Part shown: piece by piece, positions 14,475 to 26,334 of the stretch | Numbering within the stretch: the stretch's first letter is position 1 | Layout of the letters: the number at the start of each line of letters is the position of its first letter | NCBI GenBank assembly: GCA_964408845.1 | Contig: CAYPBC010000002.1 | Location: 1 to 32,457 of the forward strand | DNA from: an uncultured Thermoanaerobaculia bacterium | GTDB lineage: Bacteria > Acidobacteriota > Thermoanaerobaculia > Thermoanaerobaculales > Sulfomarinibacteraceae | Length of the DNA stretch: 32,457 nucleotides | Direction of reading: 5' to 3' | Position numbers and translations under genes: made by a program | Notes under the pieces: generated by a model | What the model was told of the DNA's origin: nothing | What the model saw: the letters and a program-made list of their open reading frames with translations, nothing else | Databases searched by the model: none

Positions 14475-14493
14475 GGACGGAGGATACCGTTGA

Positions 14494-14522
14494 AACGTTA
14501 TAACGTTCAACGTTCTAACGTT
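14494..14522. promoter_or_regulatory. Four palindromic AACGTT boxes (15-bp unit x2) in a divergent intergenic region
   Basis: AACGTT at 14494, 14502, 14509 and 14517, i.e. AACGTTATAACGTTC / AACGTTCTAACGTTC, between the HAD gene (start 14474, minus strand) and the large TGase-like gene (start 14601, plus strand). Confidence 0.6.
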
Positions 14523-14550
14523 CCGAGCGGGATCTGCCATACTCGATCGG

Positions 14551-14565
14551 TGGCGACGGATTCGC
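14551..14565 (+). promoter_or_regulatory. Weak sigma54-type -24/-12 candidate upstream of the large transglutaminase-like operon
   Basis: TGGCGAcggatTCGC has GG and GC at the exact GG-N10-GC spacing of the TGGCACG-N4-TTGC consensus. Three other consensus positions are mismatched. It lies 36 nt before ATG 14601, and two bEBP genes are in the window. Confidence 0.25.
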
Positions 14566-14600
14566 GATACCATTTCCCCAGTTGCGGCAAACAATCGTCA

Positions 14601-17600
14601 ATGGCGCGTCAGCTGTTGATTGTCTGTCTGACGGCGGTCGTCGTCTCGGTGGCGGTGTCGGTCGGAGCCGGGGCGGTCGAAGACCGTGTCAACGGCCACA
14701 TCGAGGCGGCGGTGGACGGAGGGGTGCGGCCTGCCGATTTTCACCATCTCTTCATGGCCTTTGCCTGGCGCGGCACCCTGAGTGACTGGAGCGACGCCGA
14801 ACGCAACCTCGACCGGCTGTCGGGCGTACGGCGAGTCGATCCGCTGATGGTGGACGAGATCCGGTTGATCCGGGCTCGATTGAGTCTTGACCGTGGGCTG
14901 GATGCCGCGGCACGCGAGCTCTTTCGGACCATGGGTGGCCTCTCGTCTTGGTGGTTTGAGGGCCCGGTGCCCCTCGATGAGTTGCAGGACTTTGACCGCC
15001 TTGCCGTGCCGCCGCCAGCGGACATCGAATGGCGTGCAGTGCCCGGCACCGATCCTCTCGGGTGGGTTCAGCTATCGGGTCTGGCGTGGCCTCCACGGCG
15101 GCAGATGGCCTACCTCGCGACCACGGTCATCAGCGGTGCCGAGCAACCGGTGGCGGTGAGGGTCGGGACGGCGCAGGTCGCCCGCGTGTGGCTCAATGGG
15201 TCCGAGATCGTGACCACGCCGCAGCCGATGCTGCGGGGAGGGGACCAGGTGGCGGGGGGCGCGTGGTTGCGGCAGGGGCAGAATCTGGTGGTAGTGGCTG
15301 TGGCCTCCGAAAACGACCGCTGGTGGCTGCGCGTGCGGCTGACGCGCCCCAATGGGTCGATGCTCGACGACGTGCGCGAAGTTCAGGAGCCGCCTGTCGA
15401 TCGGGCGGCGGTGGAGCGCAAACCACCGGTGGTGCGGGAGCTCGGGGCGGAAATCCGCAAGGCCGTGGAGTCGGGAACGCCGGGCGCGTCGATGGCGCTT
15501 GCAGCCTACCTGGTGGCACATCGACCGGAGCCCGAAAGCGGTGGCGGAACGCGCGCGGCCTGCCGCGCGGCGAGGACTGACGCTCCGGGCGAGGCTCGTC
15601 TGCTCGAGTGGATGGCGACCTCCGATGCGGGCGCGGCTCGCGATCTCCTTCTTGGAGCGGTGGCGGCCGACCCGGATCTCTTGTGGGCCCGCCTCGAGCT
15701 TGCCGGCTGGTACGGAGAACGGGGTCTCTTTGAAGAGGCGCGCGGGCTCCTCGGAGAAGCTGACGGGAATGAAGCGGTCGTGCGCGGCGCCACGCTCGAT
15801 CTCGACGCGGGGTTGTGGGGTGCGGTGGTACTGCCGGCGATCGCCGACCTCGGTGGTGCCTATCCGCGTTGTGTTCGGGTTAACTTGAGCGTTGCCGAGG
15901 GTGCTACCCAGGCCCGCCGTTGGGATCTCGCGACGGAGGCGGTATCGCGTCTTGAGGATCTGACCCCGGGTTCCGCGGCGATCATCGACCTTCGCCAACG
16001 TCTCGCCGAAAACTGTGGAGACGGTGACGCCCTACGGGATATTTTCACCATTCAGCTGGCGCGAGACCCAAACCGACCCGAGGTGCGCATCCGGCTGGCG
16101 CGGTTGCTGGCGGCCGACGAGGACCTCGAGGGCGCCAGCGATCTCATCAGCGAGGGGTTGCAGCGTTCTCCAGGTAACGTCGAGCTGATCGTGGAGCTGG
16201 CGGGCATCGAGCATTCCAGTGGTGACGACGTACGAGCCACGACCCTGGCTCGCGAGGCGCTCGAGCTGCGACCTCAGGACCGGCGAGCGCAGCGCCTATT
16301 GGAGCTGCTGGGCGAGCGTAGCGAGACCTTGGATTGGCTCCGGACGCCCGCGGACCTCTGGCAAATGGCGGATACGGCCGAGGCCAACGGGCACGCTGTG
16401 GCGCTCCTGGATCATCGGGAGACCCGCTTCCTACCCTCGAATCTAACCGAGGAGAGGGTTCAGCTGGTCTTTTTCGTTCATGCTGCCGACCGGGCGGATG
16501 ATCTGCTCACCCATCATCTCCCTTTCATCGCCGAGTCCGAACGTCTACGGGTGTTGCGGGCTCGCATCCTGCGTCGCGATGGCTCCGAGATTGCCGCTCG
16601 CCAGGGAAACACGCCACGGCTTTCGGAGCCGGAGTTCAGCCTCTACTACGACACGCGTCTTCGGGTGCTGAGCTTCACCGATCTCAAGGATGGTGATTTG
16701 ATCGAGATTGCCTACATTCTGACCGAGATCGAGGAATCGAATGAAACCGGCCCGTACAACGGGGGGTTGATTCGTCTCGGCCGAAGCATTCCGATCGCTC
16801 TCATGGAGCTGGAGCTGGCCGGTCCGGAGGCGCTGTTGCCAACATGGGAGCTCGTCCATCTCGAGGGCGAACCTATTTTGGAGGAGGATTCCGACGGGGT
16901 GCGCCACCTGCGCTGGCAGTGGCGGGATCTCCCGGCAGTCGCGTCCGACGTGCCCCCTGCGCCTCAGCTCATGGTGATGCCGTATCTCGTCTACTCGAAT
17001 CATCCTGACTGGGGGAGCCTCGCCGACTGGTACGCGCGCCACGTCGCGCCTCGGGTTCGGGTCTCAGAACAGGTGCAGGAGACCGCGCAGCGACTGGTGG
17101 ACGGGCTCGATGACCGCCTCGAGAGGATCAACCGGATCTACCGATTCGTGACCAATGAAATTCGATACGTGGGCCTTGAGTTCGGCGAACATCACTTCCG
17201 GCCCTTCTCGGCTGATTGGGTTCTGCACCACCGTATAGGAGATTGCAAGGACACTGCGGCGCTGTTGGTGGCGCTGTACGACGCGATTGGCGTGCCGGCC
17301 CGCATGGTGATGGTGCGCACAAATGATCTCGGGCCGGTGAGCAACGAGACCGCCGTGCTCGAAATATTCAACCATGCGATTGCCTATTTACCGGAGGACA
17401 ATCTCTGGCTCGACGGCACGGCCGCCGGACACGCGCCCTACCCGCCACCGACGGGCGATCAGGACGCCGTCGTCTTGGTGATCGACGGAGCGGAGAGCCG
17501 CCCGCAGACCTCGCCTGCTACGGGAGGTGGTCTCGCTCGGTCCAAATTCATCCTCGGCCTCGGTGAGGATGGCGTGGTCGATCTGGCGATCCGAACTGAT

Positions 17601-18137
17601 GATACCGGGGAGGCGGCCGATCTCCGACGCATTCGATTTGCCGGCAGCCGGGAAAATCAGAGAGTTTCGCGCTGGCTTCAAGAACTGTTTCCGGGCGCGC
17701 AGCTCACCGGGAAACCCAAGCTGCAGCTGAGGCCCGGTCGCGACCCGACCATCATGGAGATCGAGGGCACGGTGACTCGTAGTGCACTTCAAAGCAGTGG
17801 CGGGATCCGGGTCTTTCCCGACAGCCTCAAGTGGGCGGCGAGCATGGTGCCGGGTGGCACGCGCCACGGACCGCTGATGGTGGCGGTTCGCCCCGATCTC
17901 GAGTGGACGCTCGAGGTTGATCTCGGCCGTCCACCCGGCAGTCTGCCTGAGGCGATCAACCTGGACACATCCTTCGGATCGCTACGCGTCGAAATCAACG
18001 CCCAGGCCCTGGGTTACCGGGTGGAAGGATTCCTCCACCTCGAGGCGGGGCTGATCGAAGCCCGCGAGGTTGTTGATTTGCGCGAGTTCCTGATCGCGGT
18101 TGAGCGTCATCTCGGACGCCGTTTGGAGTCGCCGTGA
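14601..18137 (+). CDS. Large secreted TPR / DUF3857-like / transglutaminase-like protein (catalytic triad present)
   Basis: Signal peptide MARQLLIVCLTAVVVSVAVSVGAGA. Beta-sandwich-like segment (…VARVWLNGSEIV…WWLRVRLTRPNGS). TPR-like helical repeats. Transglutaminase core RIGDCKDTAALLVALYDAIGVPARMV…FNHAIAY…WLDGT, with the Cys codon at 17244-17246. Confidence 0.8.
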   Translation: MARQLLIVCLTAVVVSVAVSVGAGAVEDRVNGHIEAAVDGGVRPADFHHLFMAFAWRGTLSDWSDAERNLDRLSGVRRVDPLMVDEIRLIRARLSLDRGLDAAARELFRTMGGLSSWWFEGPVPLDELQDFDRLAVPPPADIEWRAVPGTDPLGWVQLSGLAWPPRRQMAYLATTVISGAEQPVAVRVGTAQVARVWLNGSEIVTTPQPMLRGGDQVAGGAWLRQGQNLVVVAVASENDRWWLRVRLTRPNGSMLDDVREVQEPPVDRAAVERKPPVVRELGAEIRKAVESGTPGASMALAAYLVAHRPEPESGGGTRAACRAARTDAPGEARLLEWMATSDAGAARDLLLGAVAADPDLLWARLELAGWYGERGLFEEARGLLGEADGNEAVVRGATLDLDAGLWGAVVLPAIADLGGAYPRCVRVNLSVAEGATQARRWDLATEAVSRLEDLTPGSAAIIDLRQRLAENCGDGDALRDIFTIQLARDPNRPEVRIRLARLLAADEDLEGASDLISEGLQRSPGNVELIVELAGIEHSSGDDVRATTLAREALELRPQDRRAQRLLELLGERSETLDWLRTPADLWQMADTAEANGHAVALLDHRETRFLPSNLTEERVQLVFFVHAADRADDLLTHHLPFIAESERLRVLRARILRRDGSEIAARQGNTPRLSEPEFSLYYDTRLRVLSFTDLKDGDLIEIAYILTEIEESNETGPYNGGLIRLGRSIPIALMELELAGPEALLPTWELVHLEGEPILEEDSDGVRHLRWQWRDLPAVASDVPPAPQLMVMPYLVYSNHPDWGSLADWYARHVAPRVRVSEQVQETAQRLVDGLDDRLERINRIYRFVTNEIRYVGLEFGEHHFRPFSADWVLHHRIGDCKDTAALLVALYDAIGVPARMVMVRTNDLGPVSNETAVLEIFNHAIAYLPEDNLWLDGTAAGHAPYPPPTGDQDAVVLVIDGAESRPQTSPATGGGLARSKFILGLGEDGVVDLAIRTDDTGEAADLRRIRFAGSRENQRVSRWLQELFPGAQLTGKPKLQLRPGRDPTIMEIEGTVTRSALQSSGGIRVFPDSLKWAASMVPGGTRHGPLMVAVRPDLEWTLEVDLGRPPGSLPEAINLDTSFGSLRVEINAQALGYRVEGFLHLEAGLIEAREVVDLREFLIAVERHLGRRLESP

Positions 18138-21100
18138 GAGCGCCTGCGGTCCGCACCGCAGCCCTTGCGGCGATCCTCGCTGTGTCGCTGCCACTCTCAG
18201 CAGGGTGGTGGGATGTGTGGCGCGACGACATGCGTTTCAATCTCGGGGCGGCCCGGGAACAAGCCCTTGTGGCCGTTGCCGAGAACCCGTCGAGTGCCGA
18301 CGCGGTTGCCGCCGCCGTGTGGTGGTTGGCCAACATCGATAATCTAACGGCGCCGGAGGAGATCCTCTCGGTCTCCGAGAACGACCGCGACCCCGAGCTC
18401 GGCTTTGTCCTTACTCTCATCGAGACCAGGCTGAGACTCGAAGCTCCGGCGAGCGTGCTCAAGACGGCCGAGCTGGCGGGACCGTTTGGTGTATTCAGCT
18501 CGCTCGATCTGGAGCGTGATGTCGTGCCGTCCGACGATGATCTGCCGCCGCCCGGAACCCGGTGGCGGAATCAAGGCGCCCCCTTTCGGGTCGCCGTGCG
18601 AACCTCGGATGGGCGCCTGGCGCCTCCAATCTCGATGGCCGTCGATGGGGTCTACCTGTTTTCCTGGAACCTGAAAGTGGCCGAGGCCCTCACCGGTTGG
18701 TTGGTGGTGGAAGCCCAGGGCAGCTACAACCTCTCAGTCGACGGGCACGCGGTTGACCGACGACGAGATTGCGGGTTCGAAGACCCCGCGACCAACTGGT
18801 ACCGCATTCGCCTTGCCCGCGGTGTGCATCGGCTGCGGGTTGAATTGGCCTCGCCTGACACGACCAGCGTGAGGGTCAGTGTGCTCGACAATCGGGGTGG
18901 TTCACAGGCGGTCGTGGGAATCAGCGACCAGATCTCCGATGTCTGGGCAGGGGCAGAGGTGGAATGGACTTTGCCGCCGGCTGAGGCGGCATTGTCGAAG
19001 CGCCTCGAGGACACAGGGGGTTCGACGGCGGAACTGTTGTTAGCGGCGCAGCTTGCACGCGGGCGCGGTGATCCCATGACGGAGTACGGCTGGATCAAAC
19101 GTGCCCGGGCCGAAGATCCTGAAAGCCCTTGGGCCGCCCTGGCCCTCGCACGGTACGAGTTTTTGAAAGACGCGGGCCATCGCGGTGCCGAATCCTCCCG
19201 TCTCACGGCGCAGCTCCTACGGGAGGCGACCGCGATTCCCGGATCACAGCTCTTCGAACGGGCGGTCGCCATACGTGAGGGCCGTACCGAGGACGCCGAG
19301 CGCCTTCTCGATGTGTTGATGAAGAGCCATGGAGACGATGTGCGCATCCTGCGAATCTGGGTTCGTGAGGCGGTGCGCCGAGGGTGGGCCAGCGAAGCCG
19401 AGGGAGGACTGGCCCGGCTCGAAACGGCGCTCCCGGACTCGCTCAGCGTGACGGGGCTCCGCCTCGAGGTCCTGTCGGCTCTCGAGCGCTGGCGCGAACG
19501 TGAGATGCTGCTCCGCGCACTCGCGTCTGCAACACCGGTCGAGACCCGTTGGATCGGTCAACTGGGTACGAGCTGCCTCGCGGATGAGGCGGTTGCGGCC
19601 GCTCGAACATTGCAGGGAGAGATTGAAGATCCCGACTTCGACGTTCAACTGGTGCAGCTCTATCTCGAGAGCGGCGATCTCGACGCCGCTCGTGTGGAGC
19701 TCGAACGTGCACGGGTGCGGTGGGGAGATCTTCCGATCTTTGATGAGCTGATGCTGGTGTCGGCCGGTGGCGACCCCGAGGCGTTGCAGCGGGCGGTTGC
19801 CGGCGCGCTCGAGCGCGATCCCTCGAATCTACAGCTCCTGACCCTGGCCTGGCGTCTCGGGCGGGTCCCGTTCTACGCTCCCTTTCAGGTCGAGGCGAGG
19901 GCTTTTGCCGCGGAGCACCGCGATCTCGGAACGGATGTCGATGCGGTGCTCCTCCTCGACCAGGCGGTGGAACGGATCTTCCCCGACGGCTCGAGCCTTT
20001 ATTATTATCACGGGTTGACCCGGGCCAACACACCGGTCGGGGTGCGTCGCGCATCGGTGCTGCAACCACTGCCCGAGGCATATCTGCTCAAGGTGAGGGT
20101 CCTCAAACCGGATGGCCGGCAGGTCGTGCCGAGCGAGCTCAGACCGGGTGGGGGGGCGATCACCCTGAGCGACGTGGAACCCGGTGATCTTGTAGAGGAG
20201 GAGTACGTGGCCCGGGTTGCTGCCACAGGCGCGACCCGCGATGGTCATTTGCCCCCCTACATCTACCGATTTGCCGATCCCAACCGGGCGTTCGGCCTTT
20301 CCGAGTACGTGCTGTTGGTGCCGCCCGAGATCGACCTCCAGGTGGACGGTAACTTCGACGGCCTCGAGCAGAGCGAGCAGGAGTGGGAGGGCCTCCGCAT
20401 GCTTAATTGGCGTGCGGAGCGTGTGCCGCCGATGCCGACTGAGCCGTTCGCGCCCCCCGCTCAGGATCTGATGCCATGGTTGAACTACGGGTTTGGGGTT
20501 ACCTGGCAGGACGTGGGGGACGCGGTTCGCGACAGGGTGTTGCCGGTGCTGCGAACCTCACCAGAGCTGCGTGAATGGAGCCGGCCGTTGCTCGAGGGCG
20601 AGACGGCGGCCGACGAGCTGCGGGCCCTCGTGACGGCGCTCATCGACACGGTTGAGTCGGGTGGCGGCGAGCTCGCTGTGGGCGCAGCCGCAGGAGATAG
20701 CTTTCGCCGCAGGCGCGGGAACCGCCTCGGGATTATCGCTGCGGTCCTGGCCGACGCGGGCTGGGAGGTCGATCTGGTGCTCACACGCGCGTGGACCGAA
20801 CGTGGTCAACGCCTTCGGGTGCCGACTCTGGATGCGTTTCCGGCTGCTCTGCTGCGGCTCGAAAGTGGTGGCGACGAGCTTTGGGTCGATATCCGGGAGG
20901 AGAGCCGCGGCGTCAATCACATCAACCCGATCTTTCAGGGCAGCGACGGTCTAGTGCTGCCACTGACCCGCCCGCGTACGCCGGTGACACTGATCGAAGA
21001 GTTGCCCACGTTCCCCAATCCTGATCTCGAGGAGACGGTTACGGTCCGTGCGGAGATCTCCGCAGAGGGTGATGCTCGCATCGAGTTTAGAATGCCCCTG

Positions 21101-21658
21101 CGCGGCGCCCAGGCCGATCGGCTTCTCGAACGCGTGGAGAGCGTACCAGTGGATCAGGTGGGGATGATTTATCGGCAGCTGGCTGTGAACCTCTTCGCGG
21201 GCGCCAGTGCCGTCGAGGGGAACATCGACCGCAGTCCTGACGGCGCCGTGATCCGCCTCGAGATGCTGGTTGGCAATGCGTGTGATGCCGAGGGAGGTGA
21301 GCTGGTGTGCCGAAGCCTGGTGCTTGCACACCCGATAGTGCCCGTACTGGCGTCACTGCCCGAGCGTACCTACCCGCTGGTTCTGAGGGTGCCGATCAAA
21401 CGCCGACTCGAGCTTGATCTCGTCCCTGCGCCGGGCTGGGAGCTGGAGTATCATGCGCCCCGGCGCCTCGAGGCACAGTGGGGATCGGTAGATGAAGACC
21501 TCGAAAACGAGGGCGGGTCGTTCCAATCGATACTCCACGTCGTGCTTCCGGCACAAACAGTGACGACCGAAGACTACCCCGCATTCGCACGCTTCTGCCA
21601 GGCGGTCGATGAGCTCTCCACTCGGCCGCCGCGGCTGCGCCGCGCAAGTAATCAGTAA
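18134..21658 (+). CDS. Large secreted paralogue of the preceding protein with a degenerate transglutaminase-like core
   Basis: GTGA start/stop overlap with the upstream gene. Signal peptide MRAPAVRTAALAAILAVSLPLSAG. Same domain order as its neighbour. At the position of GDCKD it reads GNRLG (Arg codon 20723-20725), and the NHAIAY His position reads FPAALL. Confidence 0.8.
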   Translation: MRAPAVRTAALAAILAVSLPLSAGWWDVWRDDMRFNLGAAREQALVAVAENPSSADAVAAAVWWLANIDNLTAPEEILSVSENDRDPELGFVLTLIETRLRLEAPASVLKTAELAGPFGVFSSLDLERDVVPSDDDLPPPGTRWRNQGAPFRVAVRTSDGRLAPPISMAVDGVYLFSWNLKVAEALTGWLVVEAQGSYNLSVDGHAVDRRRDCGFEDPATNWYRIRLARGVHRLRVELASPDTTSVRVSVLDNRGGSQAVVGISDQISDVWAGAEVEWTLPPAEAALSKRLEDTGGSTAELLLAAQLARGRGDPMTEYGWIKRARAEDPESPWAALALARYEFLKDAGHRGAESSRLTAQLLREATAIPGSQLFERAVAIREGRTEDAERLLDVLMKSHGDDVRILRIWVREAVRRGWASEAEGGLARLETALPDSLSVTGLRLEVLSALERWREREMLLRALASATPVETRWIGQLGTSCLADEAVAAARTLQGEIEDPDFDVQLVQLYLESGDLDAARVELERARVRWGDLPIFDELMLVSAGGDPEALQRAVAGALERDPSNLQLLTLAWRLGRVPFYAPFQVEARAFAAEHRDLGTDVDAVLLLDQAVERIFPDGSSLYYYHGLTRANTPVGVRRASVLQPLPEAYLLKVRVLKPDGRQVVPSELRPGGGAITLSDVEPGDLVEEEYVARVAATGATRDGHLPPYIYRFADPNRAFGLSEYVLLVPPEIDLQVDGNFDGLEQSEQEWEGLRMLNWRAERVPPMPTEPFAPPAQDLMPWLNYGFGVTWQDVGDAVRDRVLPVLRTSPELREWSRPLLEGETAADELRALVTALIDTVESGGGELAVGAAAGDSFRRRRGNRLGIIAAVLADAGWEVDLVLTRAWTERGQRLRVPTLDAFPAALLRLESGGDELWVDIREESRGVNHINPIFQGSDGLVLPLTRPRTPVTLIEELPTFPNPDLEETVTVRAEISAEGDARIEFRMPLRGAQADRLLERVESVPVDQVGMIYRQLAVNLFAGASAVEGNIDRSPDGAVIRLEMLVGNACDAEGGELVCRSLVLAHPIVPVLASLPERTYPLVLRVPIKRRLELDLVPAPGWELEYHAPRRLEAQWGSVDEDLENEGGSFQSILHVVLPAQTVTTEDYPAFARFCQAVDELSTRPPRLRRASNQ

Positions 21659-22679: not shown

Positions 22680-22700
22680 GAATGAGGAATTAGGAATGCC
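22673..22700. repeat. Heptamer array AATTAGG AATGAGG AATTAGG AATGCCA
   Basis: Contains the rsgA TAG stop (22677-22679). It continues into CCCACCCACC, the same junction (AATTAGGAATGCCACCC) as at 31635-31652. Confidence 0.9.
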
Positions 22701-22721
22701 ACCCACCCACCTGTGAATCGA

Positions 22722-22810
22722 GGGCGCGATCACCGGAGGTGCCTGGCATCCCGATTCGCCGCGAATCGGCGTGCCTGGCATCCTCTCGCGGCAGCGTTCT
22801 GAGAAACGGG
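22722..22810. repeat. GCCAGGCAC element, copy b (inverted relative to copy a)
   Basis: CGGAGGTGCCTGGCATCCCGATTCGCCGCGAATCGGCGTGCCTGGCATCCTCTCG. Two direct GTGCCTGGCATCC boxes flank a CGATTCGC/GCGAATCG palindrome. Confidence 0.85.
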
Positions 22811-22870: not shown

Positions 22871-25300
22871 TCATCCCAGCGCGCGGTGCGGGGCGGCGAG
22901 GAAGCAGGCGAGGTAGCCGGCGCGGCCGCGGAGAGTGGGGAGGGGAGCGGTGATGCCCGCGTTCTCCCGGCGCAGGCCCTCGTACACCCGGGCGAGCTCG
23001 AATCGGTTGCGAAACAGCCACATTTCCATAGGCTCTCCGGGATTGATCTCCGGCGTCTGGATCGGAACCTGAATGGCATGCAGGAGTACGTCGTCGGTGT
23101 CCCTGTACTCGCCGAAGAGCCACTTTCGGGCGCCGTTCTCGAGCAGATAGGTGATGACCAGGAGGTTGTTGGCAATGGTTCCATTTACCGCAGACGTAGC
23201 TTCGTGTGAGGATTTTTCGTCCTGGGTCAATCGTCGGAGGAGGCCGATTAGGGGGCGTTCGAAGACAATCTCCTCGGCATCCCCTGGGAGCTCAGGCCAC
23301 ACCACGGCTTCAGCCAGCTCCTGTGGTGGCAGGCCCTTGAGGCGCGCGACGCCGAGGTACCGGAATCCCACATACAGGGTGTCGGGCAGACCGGGGTCCA
23401 CCGGGAGGAACGCCCAGCGGACGTTGTCAATCGCCACCATCGAGAGCTTGGAAATATCGATCTCGAGCTCGAGTTCTTCAATGAACGGCAGGGCGACGAC
23501 AATGCCCTCGTTGACGAGTTCGCCGTGGTTGTCGAGCGTGGCCGCATAAGGTCGGGTAGAGATTTCTTCGTTACCGCTCCGAGCCGAAACCAGAGGTGAC
23601 AAGAAAAGGTCAACCTCGGTCGTGTCATAACCGGAGTGAATGAGAAACTCGGCGATGTCGGAGATTTCGCGGGTGCTCTTGCCGGTGGTGAGTCTGGCGA
23701 GCTCGACGATGCCGTGACCAAAGAACTCGAAGCGCTTGGCCTCGGGACCCGGATGGAGCATCGGTAGGAGACGAAAAACACCGTAGTTCACCGCGATCCG
23801 GATACCGTGGTTGAACGGGAAACCGACACCTCGTAGCTGTTCGTAAACATGTTGGATCTCACATGCGGCGGCAATCACTCGCAGGGCGCGGCGCGAGGTG
23901 TAGAAGGCGCCGTCGCCAAGGAATTTCTCGAAGGTGAGACGCCGGCGACGTCTGATCGCCTCGAGACGATTTTGGAAAATATACATGAACTGGAGCGCCC
24001 GTTCCTCGGCCATGCGGCCGGCCTTGCGGACCTCTTCGAGGACGGTCGTGAAGTTCGACAGATCATAGATCAGCCCGAAACGGCGGATCGAGGAGTCGAC
24101 CACTCCCGGAGCGGTGAAGTCATACGGGCGTGAGGTCTTGGCGATCGGAGTCGCGGAGGAAGGGCCGGCCAACACCAGGGTCGTGCCGTGTCGCTGCATG
24201 GGCAGGATCCGTCGCCTGAGGGCTGCGAGCAGCTCGAAGGTCTTGAGACGCAGACCAAGATCCCGAAGGAGGTCCATCTGGACCCTCGAGAGATGGATGG
24301 TGTCGGCGAGACCGGACGAGTGGATCGCATCAAGAAGACGAGGTTCAAGCAGGGCCTCCGGCCTATCGAGCTTGAGGCTCGATCCGACGGCGATACCGAG
24401 GAGACTACCCACCGCGGGTTGGCTGGAAACAAGGTCGCGGAGGCGTTCGAGCACCTCGCGGTTGGCGGTTTCCACCGCATCAGCCCTTTGTCGGAATTGC
24501 GCCTGAAGATAACCGCTGAGCTGTGATAGTTGATTCGGGGGACGGGACTCCACGAGCAGGAGCTGATCTCGGCAGATAATGCCCAAAAGGGGCGTGACGG
24601 TGGGAGTTACCTGGACCTCTGCAAGCTTACGGAGATGGTCGACGGCCGTGAGGGCTGCGCGCCGGAGGAGATCCGCGATAATGGTTGCGATGCTCTGGCG
24701 GTAGTCGTCGGTCCCCGGTGGTCGACGGCCGCCACGGGATATGGGTGGGGATTTCGGCACCTTCGACAGGGCGCGGCACACCTCTCCCGAGTGGAAGAGC
24801 AGGAAGAGATCGACCAGACCCCGGTGGTAATCGTTCATGAAGACATTCTCGAGGGTTGCAGAGATAGACTTGTGGTAGTGCTCCCGTTGCACCATCATCC
24901 GCTGTTTGTCATCCTCGTTGCCGGTCTGTGGTTGAGTTCGGTACTCCATTTCCGCCCTGATCAGACCGTCGAGGTTCCGTCGCAGCTTGAGAACCCCATC
25001 CGAGAGCAGGACCGGATATCCCCAGGTCACGACCCTCTCTTCGTCGCGACCGAAGATTGGAAAGGGAGCCGGGAGAAAGGTTGCGAGCGCAGGGAAGATG
25101 TCGCACCACCCTCCCTCAACCTCCTCCGGGGTGAGATAGACTGGGTGCTTCAGATCCTCCTGGAGGACCTGGCGAAAGGCCTCCATGGATTTTTCGTCGC
25201 GTCTCATCCCTCCATTGTAACGGGTGAGTCGCTCCAATCGGAACAGGAGATTTCGCCGCAACGACTGTTGGGTGATTGGACAACAAACCGGGAATGTCAT
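22871..25300 (-). CDS. Large hypothetical protein with a central, divergent class III nucleotidyl-cyclase-like (CHD) domain
   Basis: aa ~405-545 (nt ~23666-24088) align by eye to the CHD motif series: FGLIYDLSNFT (cf. FADIxGFT), EKFLGDGAFY (cf. KxIGDxxM), IRIAVNYGVF (cf. RIGIHxGxV) and FFGHGIVELARL (cf. xGDxVNxAARL). I do not recognise the ~400-aa N-terminal or ~260-aa C-terminal regions. The start is uncertain; internal Met codons lie at 25207 and 25186. Confidence 0.7.
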   Translation of the reverse strand: MTFPVCCPITQQSLRRNLLFRLERLTRYNGGMRRDEKSMEAFRQVLQEDLKHPVYLTPEEVEGGWCDIFPALATFLPAPFPIFGRDEERVVTWGYPVLLSDGVLKLRRNLDGLIRAEMEYRTQPQTGNEDDKQRMMVQREHYHKSISATLENVFMNDYHRGLVDLFLLFHSGEVCRALSKVPKSPPISRGGRRPPGTDDYRQSIATIIADLLRRAALTAVDHLRKLAEVQVTPTVTPLLGIICRDQLLLVESRPPNQLSQLSGYLQAQFRQRADAVETANREVLERLRDLVSSQPAVGSLLGIAVGSSLKLDRPEALLEPRLLDAIHSSGLADTIHLSRVQMDLLRDLGLRLKTFELLAALRRRILPMQRHGTTLVLAGPSSATPIAKTSRPYDFTAPGVVDSSIRRFGLIYDLSNFTTVLEEVRKAGRMAEERALQFMYIFQNRLEAIRRRRRLTFEKFLGDGAFYTSRRALRVIAAACEIQHVYEQLRGVGFPFNHGIRIAVNYGVFRLLPMLHPGPEAKRFEFFGHGIVELARLTTGKSTREISDIAEFLIHSGYDTTEVDLFLSPLVSARSGNEEISTRPYAATLDNHGELVNEGIVVALPFIEELELEIDISKLSMVAIDNVRWAFLPVDPGLPDTLYVGFRYLGVARLKGLPPQELAEAVVWPELPGDAEEIVFERPLIGLLRRLTQDEKSSHEATSAVNGTIANNLLVITYLLENGARKWLFGEYRDTDDVLLHAIQVPIQTPEINPGEPMEMWLFRNRFELARVYEGLRRENAGITAPLPTLRGRAGYLACFLAAPHRALG

Positions 25301-25311
25301 AATGGACGCAT

Positions 25312-26334
25312 ATGCTATTTGAGGATTTGGTGCGGGCGATCAGGGAAAGCCCTTTCTTCCACGGCATGGCCCAGGATGAACAGATATCGCTGGCGCGGTT
25401 GGGCAGGGTAGACGTATATCCGCCGGGTGGGGTTTTATTTCGCCCTGGCGAGATGCCGTCAGCCCTCTACCTGGTACTCGAGGGGGAGGTTGAAATCTGC
25501 CGTGAGGAGAGCCCGGAGGTGGGACTGCAGCCGGTGGCCTACCTTAGTGTCGGTTCGACCGTGTCCGAGAGCAAGGTGCTCACTGGTGCGGCCCTGAACT
25601 CCCTCGGCCATTTTCCGGAGGGCGGCACCACGCTTCAGTGGCCACGGCCGGTGCTTCTCCGCCACCTCTACTCGTCGCCAGACCTGGCTCTCCACTACAT
25701 GCAACAATTGGCCCGCCGTCTCGAGGGCACCATCGCGCACCTCGGTGCGCACAGTGGCAGCAACCTCCGCGGTAGGCTCGATCAATTTGATCTTCCCGCG
25801 ATTCTGCAGACAGTAGTTGATTCCGGTGCCACCGGCGTGCTCGAAATATCGGACTCCGAGGGTCAGACCTTTGGAGCCATCCACACGAGCAGCCAGATGA
25901 TTGGGCGCATCATGTGCGGAGGTCTCGAAGGTCCTGAAGCATTCCTGGAAATCTTGAATTCTCCACCGGAAAACGGGACTTTCAGATTCTCGAATCTCTC
26001 AGTCGCCCCGGCGACCGACACCTACCGCCAGGTTCAACCGCTCCTCCTCGAGGCGGCGAGAATTCAAGATGAGTTCGGGCATTTTGCGGCAACGGTGCCC
26101 GAGACCGCACTCCTGCAGCCCGCTACTCGCCGATTGACATGGAGGAGCGACAGTAACGCGAATCTCGCGGAAGAGATCTGGCATCAGCTTTCCGCTCAGC
26201 CCGGCGGCTGGGGCGTGCTGGCCGAGATGCTGCCGTTCAGCAGGGGTCAGATCGCTCTGACGGTGCGTGACATGCTGGTGGCGGGCGTACTCAATGTCAA
26301 CCGCGATCACGAGATAACGGGCGGCGAACGCTAA
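25312..26334 (+). CDS. cNMP-binding-domain + DUF4388-like domain protein
   Basis: N-terminal CAP_ED-like beta-barrel (SPFFHGMAQDEQISLARLGRVDVYPPGGVLFRPGEMPSALYLVLEGEVEI). Central DUF4388-like block (LRGRLDQFDLPAILQTVVDSGATGVLEISDSEGQTFGAIH…GLEGPEAFLEIL…GTFRF). Confidence 0.7.
   Translation: MLFEDLVRAIRESPFFHGMAQDEQISLARLGRVDVYPPGGVLFRPGEMPSALYLVLEGEVEICREESPEVGLQPVAYLSVGSTVSESKVLTGAALNSLGHFPEGGTTLQWPRPVLLRHLYSSPDLALHYMQQLARRLEGTIAHLGAHSGSNLRGRLDQFDLPAILQTVVDSGATGVLEISDSEGQTFGAIHTSSQMIGRIMCGGLEGPEAFLEILNSPPENGTFRFSNLSVAPATDTYRQVQPLLLEAARIQDEFGHFAATVPETALLQPATRRLTWRSDSNANLAEEIWHQLSAQPGGWGVLAEMLPFSRGQIALTVRDMLVAGVLNVNRDHEITGGER

Follow-up and report, generated by a model that had tools for sequence, protein, structure and literature searches.

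Does a gene whose product has drifted far from the class III nucleotidyl cyclases, and which has lost a residue that these enzymes use in catalysis, still encode a working cyclase, and if so, which cyclic nucleotide would it make? The gene in question lies on the reverse strand of a 32,457-nucleotide stretch of DNA (hereafter, the window; positions 1 to 32,457 of contig CAYPBC010000002.1, assembly GCA_964408845.1) from an uncultured Thermoanaerobaculia bacterium of the Sulfomarinibacteraceae (phylum Acidobacteriota). A preliminary description of the window, made by eye, had flagged a divergent class III cyclase-like catalytic core at positions 23666-24088 (residues 405-545) and had left open whether the protein is an active enzyme, perhaps with unusual chemistry, or a pseudo-cyclase. 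The divergent cyclase-like core is supported here by both profile-profile homology and a fold search, and we favor, with some reservation, the view that the gene product is a soluble, multidomain class III nucleotidyl cyclase from a very divergent branch that is restricted to Thermoanaerobaculia, a view built on alignments and predicted structures. Residue numbers throughout are those of an 809-residue open reading frame (ORF), kept for comparison with the preliminary description.

It is, in our judgment, nearly certain from homology and predicted fold that the core is a cyclase homology domain (CHD). A profile of the family core, built from 158 and then from 65 sequences with a distant ~670-residue subfamily included, was aligned with hhalign to 30 genuine PF00211 domains taken from Acidobacteriota genomes, and the two matched over 120 columns with a probability of 96.5% (E 7.5e-10 to 9.7e-10), the motifs being in register and residues 410-540 corresponding to CHD positions 5-137 of 174. 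A control profile constructed likewise from 24 GGDEF domains of the same taxonomic class gave 0.7% (E 0.085). The CHD does lie where it was first placed, but its extent had been underestimated, as it continues past an insert to about residue 668 ('YLGVARLKGL...'). Compared by hhalign with extended CHDs, the C-terminal piece places 'VGFRYLGVARLKGLPP' on 'F..lG.v.vKG', a match that is weak when taken alone (E 3.3e-4, probability 38%). The stretch 'VGFRYLGVARLKGLPPQELAEAVVW' (residues 643-668) matches the CHD C-terminal pattern 'f..lG.v.vKG....vy.v' and forms the last beta hairpin of the structural model, with K655 in the place of the 'KG' lysine. That is, the chain rejoins the CHD after the insert, so that the domain would span residues ~404-668, nearly twice the interval first flagged.

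The predicted structure agrees with the profile comparison. A template-free AlphaFold2 model of residues 385-680, computed from the 65-sequence alignment, reached a mean predicted local distance difference test (pLDDT) score of 89.4 and a predicted template modeling score (pTM) of 0.84, with the topology beta1-alpha1-alpha2-beta2-beta3-alpha3-beta4-beta5-alpha4-[insert]-beta6/alpha5-beta hairpin-beta7-beta8. When this model was searched against the PDB with Foldseek, only class III cyclases were found among the top 50 matches (probability 1.00, E 1.3e-8 to ~2e-6, 256-298 columns), the structures matched being Cya2, CyaB, Ma1120, CyaC, Rv1900c, bPAC/OaPAC, Rv1625c-type cyclases, the rhodopsin guanylyl cyclase and soluble guanylyl cyclase (sGC). 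Isolated catalytic-domain chains reached target-normalized template modeling (TM) scores of 0.6-0.79, and long multi-domain entries such as 6fht, bPAC/OaPAC and full-length sGC fell to 0.20-0.42. The preliminary description had named a fold other than the CHD palm as one finding that would count against it; the model and the fold search return that palm (beta-alpha-alpha-beta-beta-alpha-beta), in what is a predicted structure. Homology and modeled fold thus place the family in the class III cyclase superfamily.

Conservation at the active-site positions of this domain is strong, as counted over 312 distinct sequences of the family, fragments among them, whose identity with the window protein falls as low as ~30%. 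The ORF and codon coordinates first given for the two proposed metal-binding aspartates, D413 (IYDLSNFT) and D463 (FLGDGAFY), are exact, and the assignment itself is borne out, as hhalign places both on the canonical aspartate columns (FADIVGFT and KFIGDA) and both fall on the correct structural elements, D463 sitting between strands 456-461 and 464-469 of the domain model. The arginine that had been described as kept, R536, falls on the catalytic arginine column of helix alpha4, four residues after V532 (Arg in 279 of 280 sequences). With respect to the transition-state asparagine, the preliminary description was right that it is replaced but not about the replacing residue: the column is occupied by V532 (Val) rather than by E533, because the canonical asparagine and arginine lie four residues apart, as do V532 and R536, whereas E533 and R536 are only three apart. 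This column is Val in 269 of 280 sequences, otherwise I, T, A or L, and never Asn; that is, of the pair formed by Asn at position i and Arg at i+4, the arginine is present and the asparagine is not. E533 is itself an invariant specific to the family (Glu in 280 of 280).

The region that determines base specificity had been thought not obviously of adenylyl- or guanylyl-cyclase type. It can in fact be read: K459 falls on the lysine column and E525 on the column that holds Asp or Thr, and together they suggest an adenylyl-cyclase pattern. The second of these positions is Asp in class IIIa adenylyl cyclases and Thr in class IIIb, and, in general, Lys paired with Asp or Thr selects ATP and Glu paired with Cys, Gly and others selects GTP. 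We know of no characterized cyclase with Glu at the second specificity position, where the rare exceptions among the homologues are D, Q or R. The combination of K459 with an acidic E525 suggests, on alignment grounds, that ATP is the substrate. The lysine of the 'KG' hairpin, K655, lies in a region covered by the Foldseek alignments (~265-290 columns). Further invariants are peculiar to the family, namely E458, directly before K459, K541 (Lys in 278 of 278) and N597 (275 of 277); H529 is invariant in close relatives and is P, Q, R, E, K or Y in the distant subfamily. In the domain model, each catalytic position sits on the secondary-structure element where it would be expected, and the alignments point to strong purifying selection on exactly the metal-, base- and phosphate-binding residues of class III cyclases. 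Coordinates of these and the other features are collected in Table 1.

Table 1. Positions of the cyclase-like gene, its predicted domains and active-site positions, and the divergent neighbor (window coordinates; residue numbers of the 809-residue ORF).
Feature	Coordinates	Strand	Basis and remarks
Gene for a probable 778-residue protein	22871..25207	-	Stop codon 22871-22873 included; ORF list, homologue lengths, genome-search mapping
N-terminal region, residues 32 to ~403	24092..25207	-	Mostly helical; no known domain
Predicted class III CHD, residues ~404-668	23297..24091	-	hhalign vs PF00211, AlphaFold2 domain model, Foldseek
D413, first metal-binding Asp position	24062..24064	-	LIYDLSNFT on FADIVGFT; end of beta1 (strand 404-414); Asp 266/266
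K459, adenine-specifying Lys position	23924..23926	-	FEKFLGDG on LDKFIGDA; beta2; Lys 270/270
D463, second metal-binding Asp position	23912..23914	-	FLGDGAFY on IGDA; beta2-beta3 hairpin; Asp 269/270
E525, second specificity position	23726..23728	-	On T of YTVLGNTVN; beta5; 7 residues before Asn column; Glu 275/281
V532-E533-L534-A535-R536	23693..23707	-	Helix alpha4 (529-539 in model); GHGIVELAR on GNTVNVTAR
Insert after alpha4, residues ~541-586	23543..23680	-	Begins at invariant G540-K541; helices 543-555 and 560-574 (domain model)
K655 in 'GVARLKGL', 'KG' phosphate-binding Lys position	23336..23338	-	beta7-beta8 hairpin; Lys 269/269
C-terminal region, residues ~669-809	22874..23296	-	Mixed alpha/beta; highly conserved end ...GYLACFLAAPHRA
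Divergent neighbor, cNMP_binding and DUF4388/PatA_N	25312..26334	+	Pfam 27.0 bits (cut-off 27.5) and 34.6 bits

Set beside the class III CHDs of known structure (PF00211; Cya2 2w01, CyaB 3r5g, CyaC 1wc0-1wc6), the family shares the fold (Foldseek E ~1e-8, target-normalized TM ~0.7), the order of motifs, the two metal aspartates, the beta2 lysine, the alpha4 arginine, the KG hairpin, and the presence of one CHD per chain, as in the homodimeric bacterial cyclases. Unlike them, it lies below HMMER detection against PF00211 and PDB sequences, has Val for Asn and Glu for Asp/Thr, carries a ~45-residue insert after alpha4, and adds the invariant E458, E533, K541 and N597 as well as novel N- and C-terminal domains. 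It departs from the described CHDs in five respects (Val-Glu at the asparagine site, the specificity Glu, the insert, the extra invariants and the flanking domains). Two formal features of class III membership are missing, the curated profile threshold, since the window protein does not reach the PF00211 gathering score, and the asparagine of the Asn-Arg pair; remote homology, the palm fold, the two metal aspartates and the KG lysine are present.

The closest precedent for the missing asparagine is Ma1120 from Mycobacterium avium, an active class III adenylyl cyclase with K101, D157, R168 and, at the asparagine position, A164, in which restoring the asparagine (A164N) reduced or abolished activity (PMC4215837). 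These four residues are spaced as K459, E525, R536 and V532 are in the window protein, and Ma1120 (4wp8, 4wp9, 5d15) is among the best Foldseek matches (rank 5, target-normalized TM 0.77-0.79). It differs in being a minimal CHD of ~165 residues that ordinary profiles recognize, in having Asp rather than Glu at the specificity position, and in lacking both the insert and the large flanking domains. Since active Ma1120 has Ala at this position, the loss of the asparagine need not mean inactivity. The choice between enzyme and pseudo-cyclase therefore leans toward an active enzyme, given the invariant catalytic positions and this precedent, while the evidence on unusual chemistry points neither way. 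Catalytic activity as a cyclase thus seems to us somewhat better than an even prospect, judged from alignment and model, and the protein is probably an adenylyl cyclase of a lineage-specific kind rather than a dead look-alike. The specificity pair of Lys and an acidic residue favors the conversion of ATP to cyclic AMP (cAMP), a product that we propose tentatively, at slightly under even chances.

Under this reading, the CHD would homodimerize head to tail like other bacterial CHDs and form two symmetric sites, each taking its pair of aspartates from one chain and its Lys, Glu and Arg from the partner chain; a homodimer would suffice because every catalytic residue is in one chain. A nucleoside triphosphate complexed with Mg2+ or Mn2+ would be bound and cyclized, the 3'-OH attacking the alpha-phosphate of ATP by a two-metal-ion mechanism to yield cAMP and pyrophosphate. 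The absent asparagine would be tolerated as in Ma1120, and the invariant E533, with the possible help of N597 or K541, may do part of its work or tune the chemistry. E533, three residues before R536 on alpha4 and so presumably on a neighboring face of the helix, could form a salt bridge with the arginine or reach the ribose or metal site. The helical N-terminal ~370 residues would regulate the domain through the conserved linker 'TRPxDFxxPGVVD', and, in the long subfamily, the C-terminal alpha/beta domain would be a possible further regulator.

Several points weigh against reading the protein as an active adenylyl cyclase and should be considered together. With E allowed up to 10, PF00211 gives no match to the window protein, and a set of 65 family members, with E up to 1, gives none either; neither phmmer nor hmmsearch with the family profile, run against all PDB sequences, returned anything relevant or any solved cyclase. 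The residue map rests on one profile-profile alignment and a predicted model, and the asparagine column is hydrophobic throughout the family. The Glu in place of Asp, the insert after alpha4 and the invariant E458, E533, K541 and N597 could indicate a different substrate or reaction, and the catalytic residues that are kept are also compatible with a nucleotide-binding sensor without turnover. Gene context offers no independent support, as the divergent neighbor with its cNMP_binding match (discussed below) is adjacent only in close relatives, scores just under the cut-off and, read by eye, lacks the clamping arginine. Finally, the divergent CHD is not the only nucleotide-second-messenger enzyme of its genome: the assembly, which is ~70% complete, has one canonical PF00211 cyclase (95 bits; G000 contig 17, 7508-8029, reverse strand, L003) and at least nine GGDEF domains. 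In contrast to the window protein, that canonical cyclase matches solved cyclases at 1e-35 in a single-sequence search.

The alternative that survives best, though we consider it unlikely, is that of a pseudo-cyclase or nucleotide sensor, in which the domain would bind a metal-nucleotide or pyrophosphate without useful cyclization for want of the asparagine and would act as a ligand sensor or a scaffold for the N- and C-terminal domains. In a mammalian cyclase, mutation of the transition-state asparagine strongly lowers kcat (Yan et al. 1997, as cited in PMC4215837), and in the present family the asparagine is absent from all members (V, I, A, T or L). The divergence of the domain beyond HMMER detection and its position between large domains without a known match are also in keeping with such a role. 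However, down to ~30% identity there is next to no variation at the two aspartates, the Lys, the Arg or the KG Lys, and since pseudo-enzymes usually lose their metal ligands first, the retention of the aspartates counts against it, as does Ma1120, which is active with a small hydrophobic residue in the asparagine column.

Alternatively, the protein might be an active enzyme with non-canonical chemistry, acting on another nucleotide or making another product (a pyrimidine cyclic nucleoside monophosphate, a 2',3'- or linear product, or nucleotidyl transfer), with E533, K541, N597 and the insert shaping a modified active site. The family invariants adjoining catalytic positions (E458, E533, K541 and N597), the Glu that replaces Asp/Thr at the specificity position, the ~45-residue insert and the linker 'TRPxDFxxPGVVD', which has no counterpart in standard CHDs, would all be at home in such an enzyme. 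Nevertheless, the gene context points to no other product. A defense cyclase of the Pycsar PycC type can be set aside, as the protein has no match at E up to 1 in the PADLOC library, which presumably includes the Pycsar pyrimidine cyclases, and as the distribution of the family is vertical rather than patchy. Further, the Lys and acidic pair is the adenine-reading pattern, restated for K101 and D157 of Ma1120 (PMC4215837), and on balance we regard this alternative as improbable. We give an equally low probability to the broader proposition of a class III branch whose active site is remodeled by Val-Glu at the asparagine site of alpha4, a Lys/Glu specificity pair, the insert and the invariant K541 and N597, and which would have a non-standard product or a new catalytic role for E533, a 370-residue helical sensor of a new type, and the function of a private second-messenger enzyme of Thermoanaerobaculia. 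That the domain is not of cyclase type at all, its motifs being a chance likeness or its fold that of another palm family (GGDEF or a polymerase palm), is very hard to sustain and effectively refuted: the failure of HMMER to connect the domain with PF00211 or solved cyclases would fit, but hhalign separates CHD from GGDEF (96.5% vs. 0.7%), the top 50 Foldseek matches are all class III cyclases, and motif order, spacing and secondary-structure placement agree. GGDEF domains (PF00990), which have a distantly related palm-type fold and two acidic metal ligands and which the 'LGDGAF' of the window protein superficially resembles, were ruled out in particular, as there is no profile-profile match, no Pfam match and no GGDEF structure among the top 50 folds.

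Outside the CHD, the preliminary observation that the remainder lacks a recognizable motif was confirmed by database and fold searches: the N- and C-terminal regions have no Pfam, NCBIfam or PDB match and no meaningful fold match, and the 778-residue protein as a whole has none in Pfam, NCBIfam or PADLOC. The insert has no counterpart in the canonical CHD profile. The linker 'TRPxDFxxPGVVD' (residues 390-402), just N-terminal of the CHD, adopts no structure in the monomer model (pLDDT 55-69). The N-terminal region is predicted to be helical in a full-length AlphaFold2 model whose overall confidence is low; this model, made from 25 sequences, was poor (pLDDT 57.7, with the core below 50), and its fold search gave noise. 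The ~670-residue subfamily is without the C-terminal region and covers profile positions ~35-640 only. The ~370-residue helical N-terminal region and, where present, the C-terminal domain are probably regulatory or sensor modules.

The start of the gene also needed revision. The longest ORF runs from a first ATG at 25300 to 22871 on the reverse strand and has 809 residues; the true start, to judge from the sequence comparisons, is probably M32 at 25207, giving 778 residues. This start is preferred because the homologues are ~776-778 residues long with N-termini that coincide with M32, because the 778-position family profile, when searched against the genome, covers 22874-25207 with positions 1-778, and because GGAGGG stands immediately 5' of the ATG at 25207. 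A start at 25300 would leave 11 bp to the divergent gene, and the M32 start leaves a divergent intergenic region of 104 bp (25207-25311).

The family is confined to the Thermoanaerobaculia (Ca. Sulfomarinibacteraceae, Thermoanaerobaculales, Thermoanaerobaculaceae), with 475 loci in the species-genome collection. Among 301 sampled genomes of the phylum, 18 carry the gene and all but one of these are Thermoanaerobaculia, in which it is syntenic, vertically conserved and present in one copy, except that two genomes carry a further, separate locus or a paralogue (G040). The few loci with other taxon labels are probably mis-binned. Two such loci, L066 and L106, have 89% and 65% domain identity with the same gene order and are labeled 'Deltaproteobacteria bacterium' and 'Candidatus Methylomirabilota bacterium'; both contigs probably belong to Thermoanaerobaculia and were mis-binned or mislabeled. 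When 1.84 billion representative proteins were searched with the family profile, 197 clusters were returned, every one of them from this family, and none linked it to canonical cyclases. The existing source names of 120 listed homologues are all 'hypothetical protein' except for one, P0008, which is a 'class 3 adenylate cyclase' in JGI naming, an independent label in favor of a cyclase. The window sequence occurs in marine-sediment and cold-seep metagenome runs, and two marine-sediment metatranscriptomes contain short contigs that match parts of the gene at 93-98% identity, which hints, weakly, that close relatives are transcribed.

As for the gene neighborhood, the divergent gene with cNMP_binding and DUF4388/PatA_N domains lies ahead of genes for a PDZ-PAS histidine kinase and a sigma-54 response regulator. 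Its phosphate-binding cassette (VGSTVSESKVLTGAALNS), read by eye, is without the arginine that clamps the cyclic phosphate, so that the neighbor may not bind cAMP or cyclic GMP canonically. The block formed by this gene, the kinase, the regulator and, on the opposite side of the cyclase-like gene, rsgA and two transglutaminase-like genes is kept in every locus of at least ~50-53% identity and is absent around more distant homologues. A private cyclase/receptor pair was therefore rejected as support for the cyclase reading, as a block that is syntenic only in relatives of at least ~50% identity reflects lineage synteny. The syntenic block includes, at window positions 14490-21658 on the forward strand, two adjacent proteins of ~1,200 residues with TPR, DUF3857 and transglutaminase-like domains, the second of which has weak matches only and no transglutaminase-core match.

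Three side observations were made around these loci. In the ~670-residue subfamily, a gene of ~300 residues adjoins the cyclase-like gene in 8 of 19 loci (L034, L053, L056, L057, L058, L060, L061 and L063) and is co-directional and immediately downstream in 6 of the 8; in L034 (9092-9988), the one locus checked, it is a PF01259 SAICAR synthase. An ABC-transporter/OEP efflux cluster often lies upstream in the loci of the same subfamily. In the window, the convergent gap between rsgA and the cyclase-like gene (22697-22793) has a summed contig depth of 1554 (X18) vs. ~10-30 in the flanking genes, with depth also raised in X21 (132) and X22 (75) and with many short contigs ending there. It contains two copies of GTGCCTGGCATCC around a CCGATTCGC/GCGAATCGG hairpin, an Rfam scan of the window gave no match, and the gap looks like a repeat common to many sediment genomes or an abundant small transcript.

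In conclusion, the family is a remote new branch of a known enzyme family, with an activity and a product that are predicted from sequence and model, and our results overturn nothing that is known: an established enzyme class already has this fold, these metal ligands and what is probably the same chemistry. Standard annotation misses the family entirely, with no Pfam or NCBIfam match and nearly all homologues called hypothetical, and literature searches turned up no description of this cyclase-like family. Yet the gene is conserved, and single-copy in most genomes, across widespread sediment Acidobacteriota, for which a probable cyclase would mean an extra signaling enzyme in organisms known only from metagenomes, with the flanking domains as candidate sensor modules. 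The family would also join Ma1120 as a second natural case of a CHD without the transition-state asparagine, and may therefore be useful for sorting out which catalytic residues of CHDs are truly indispensable.

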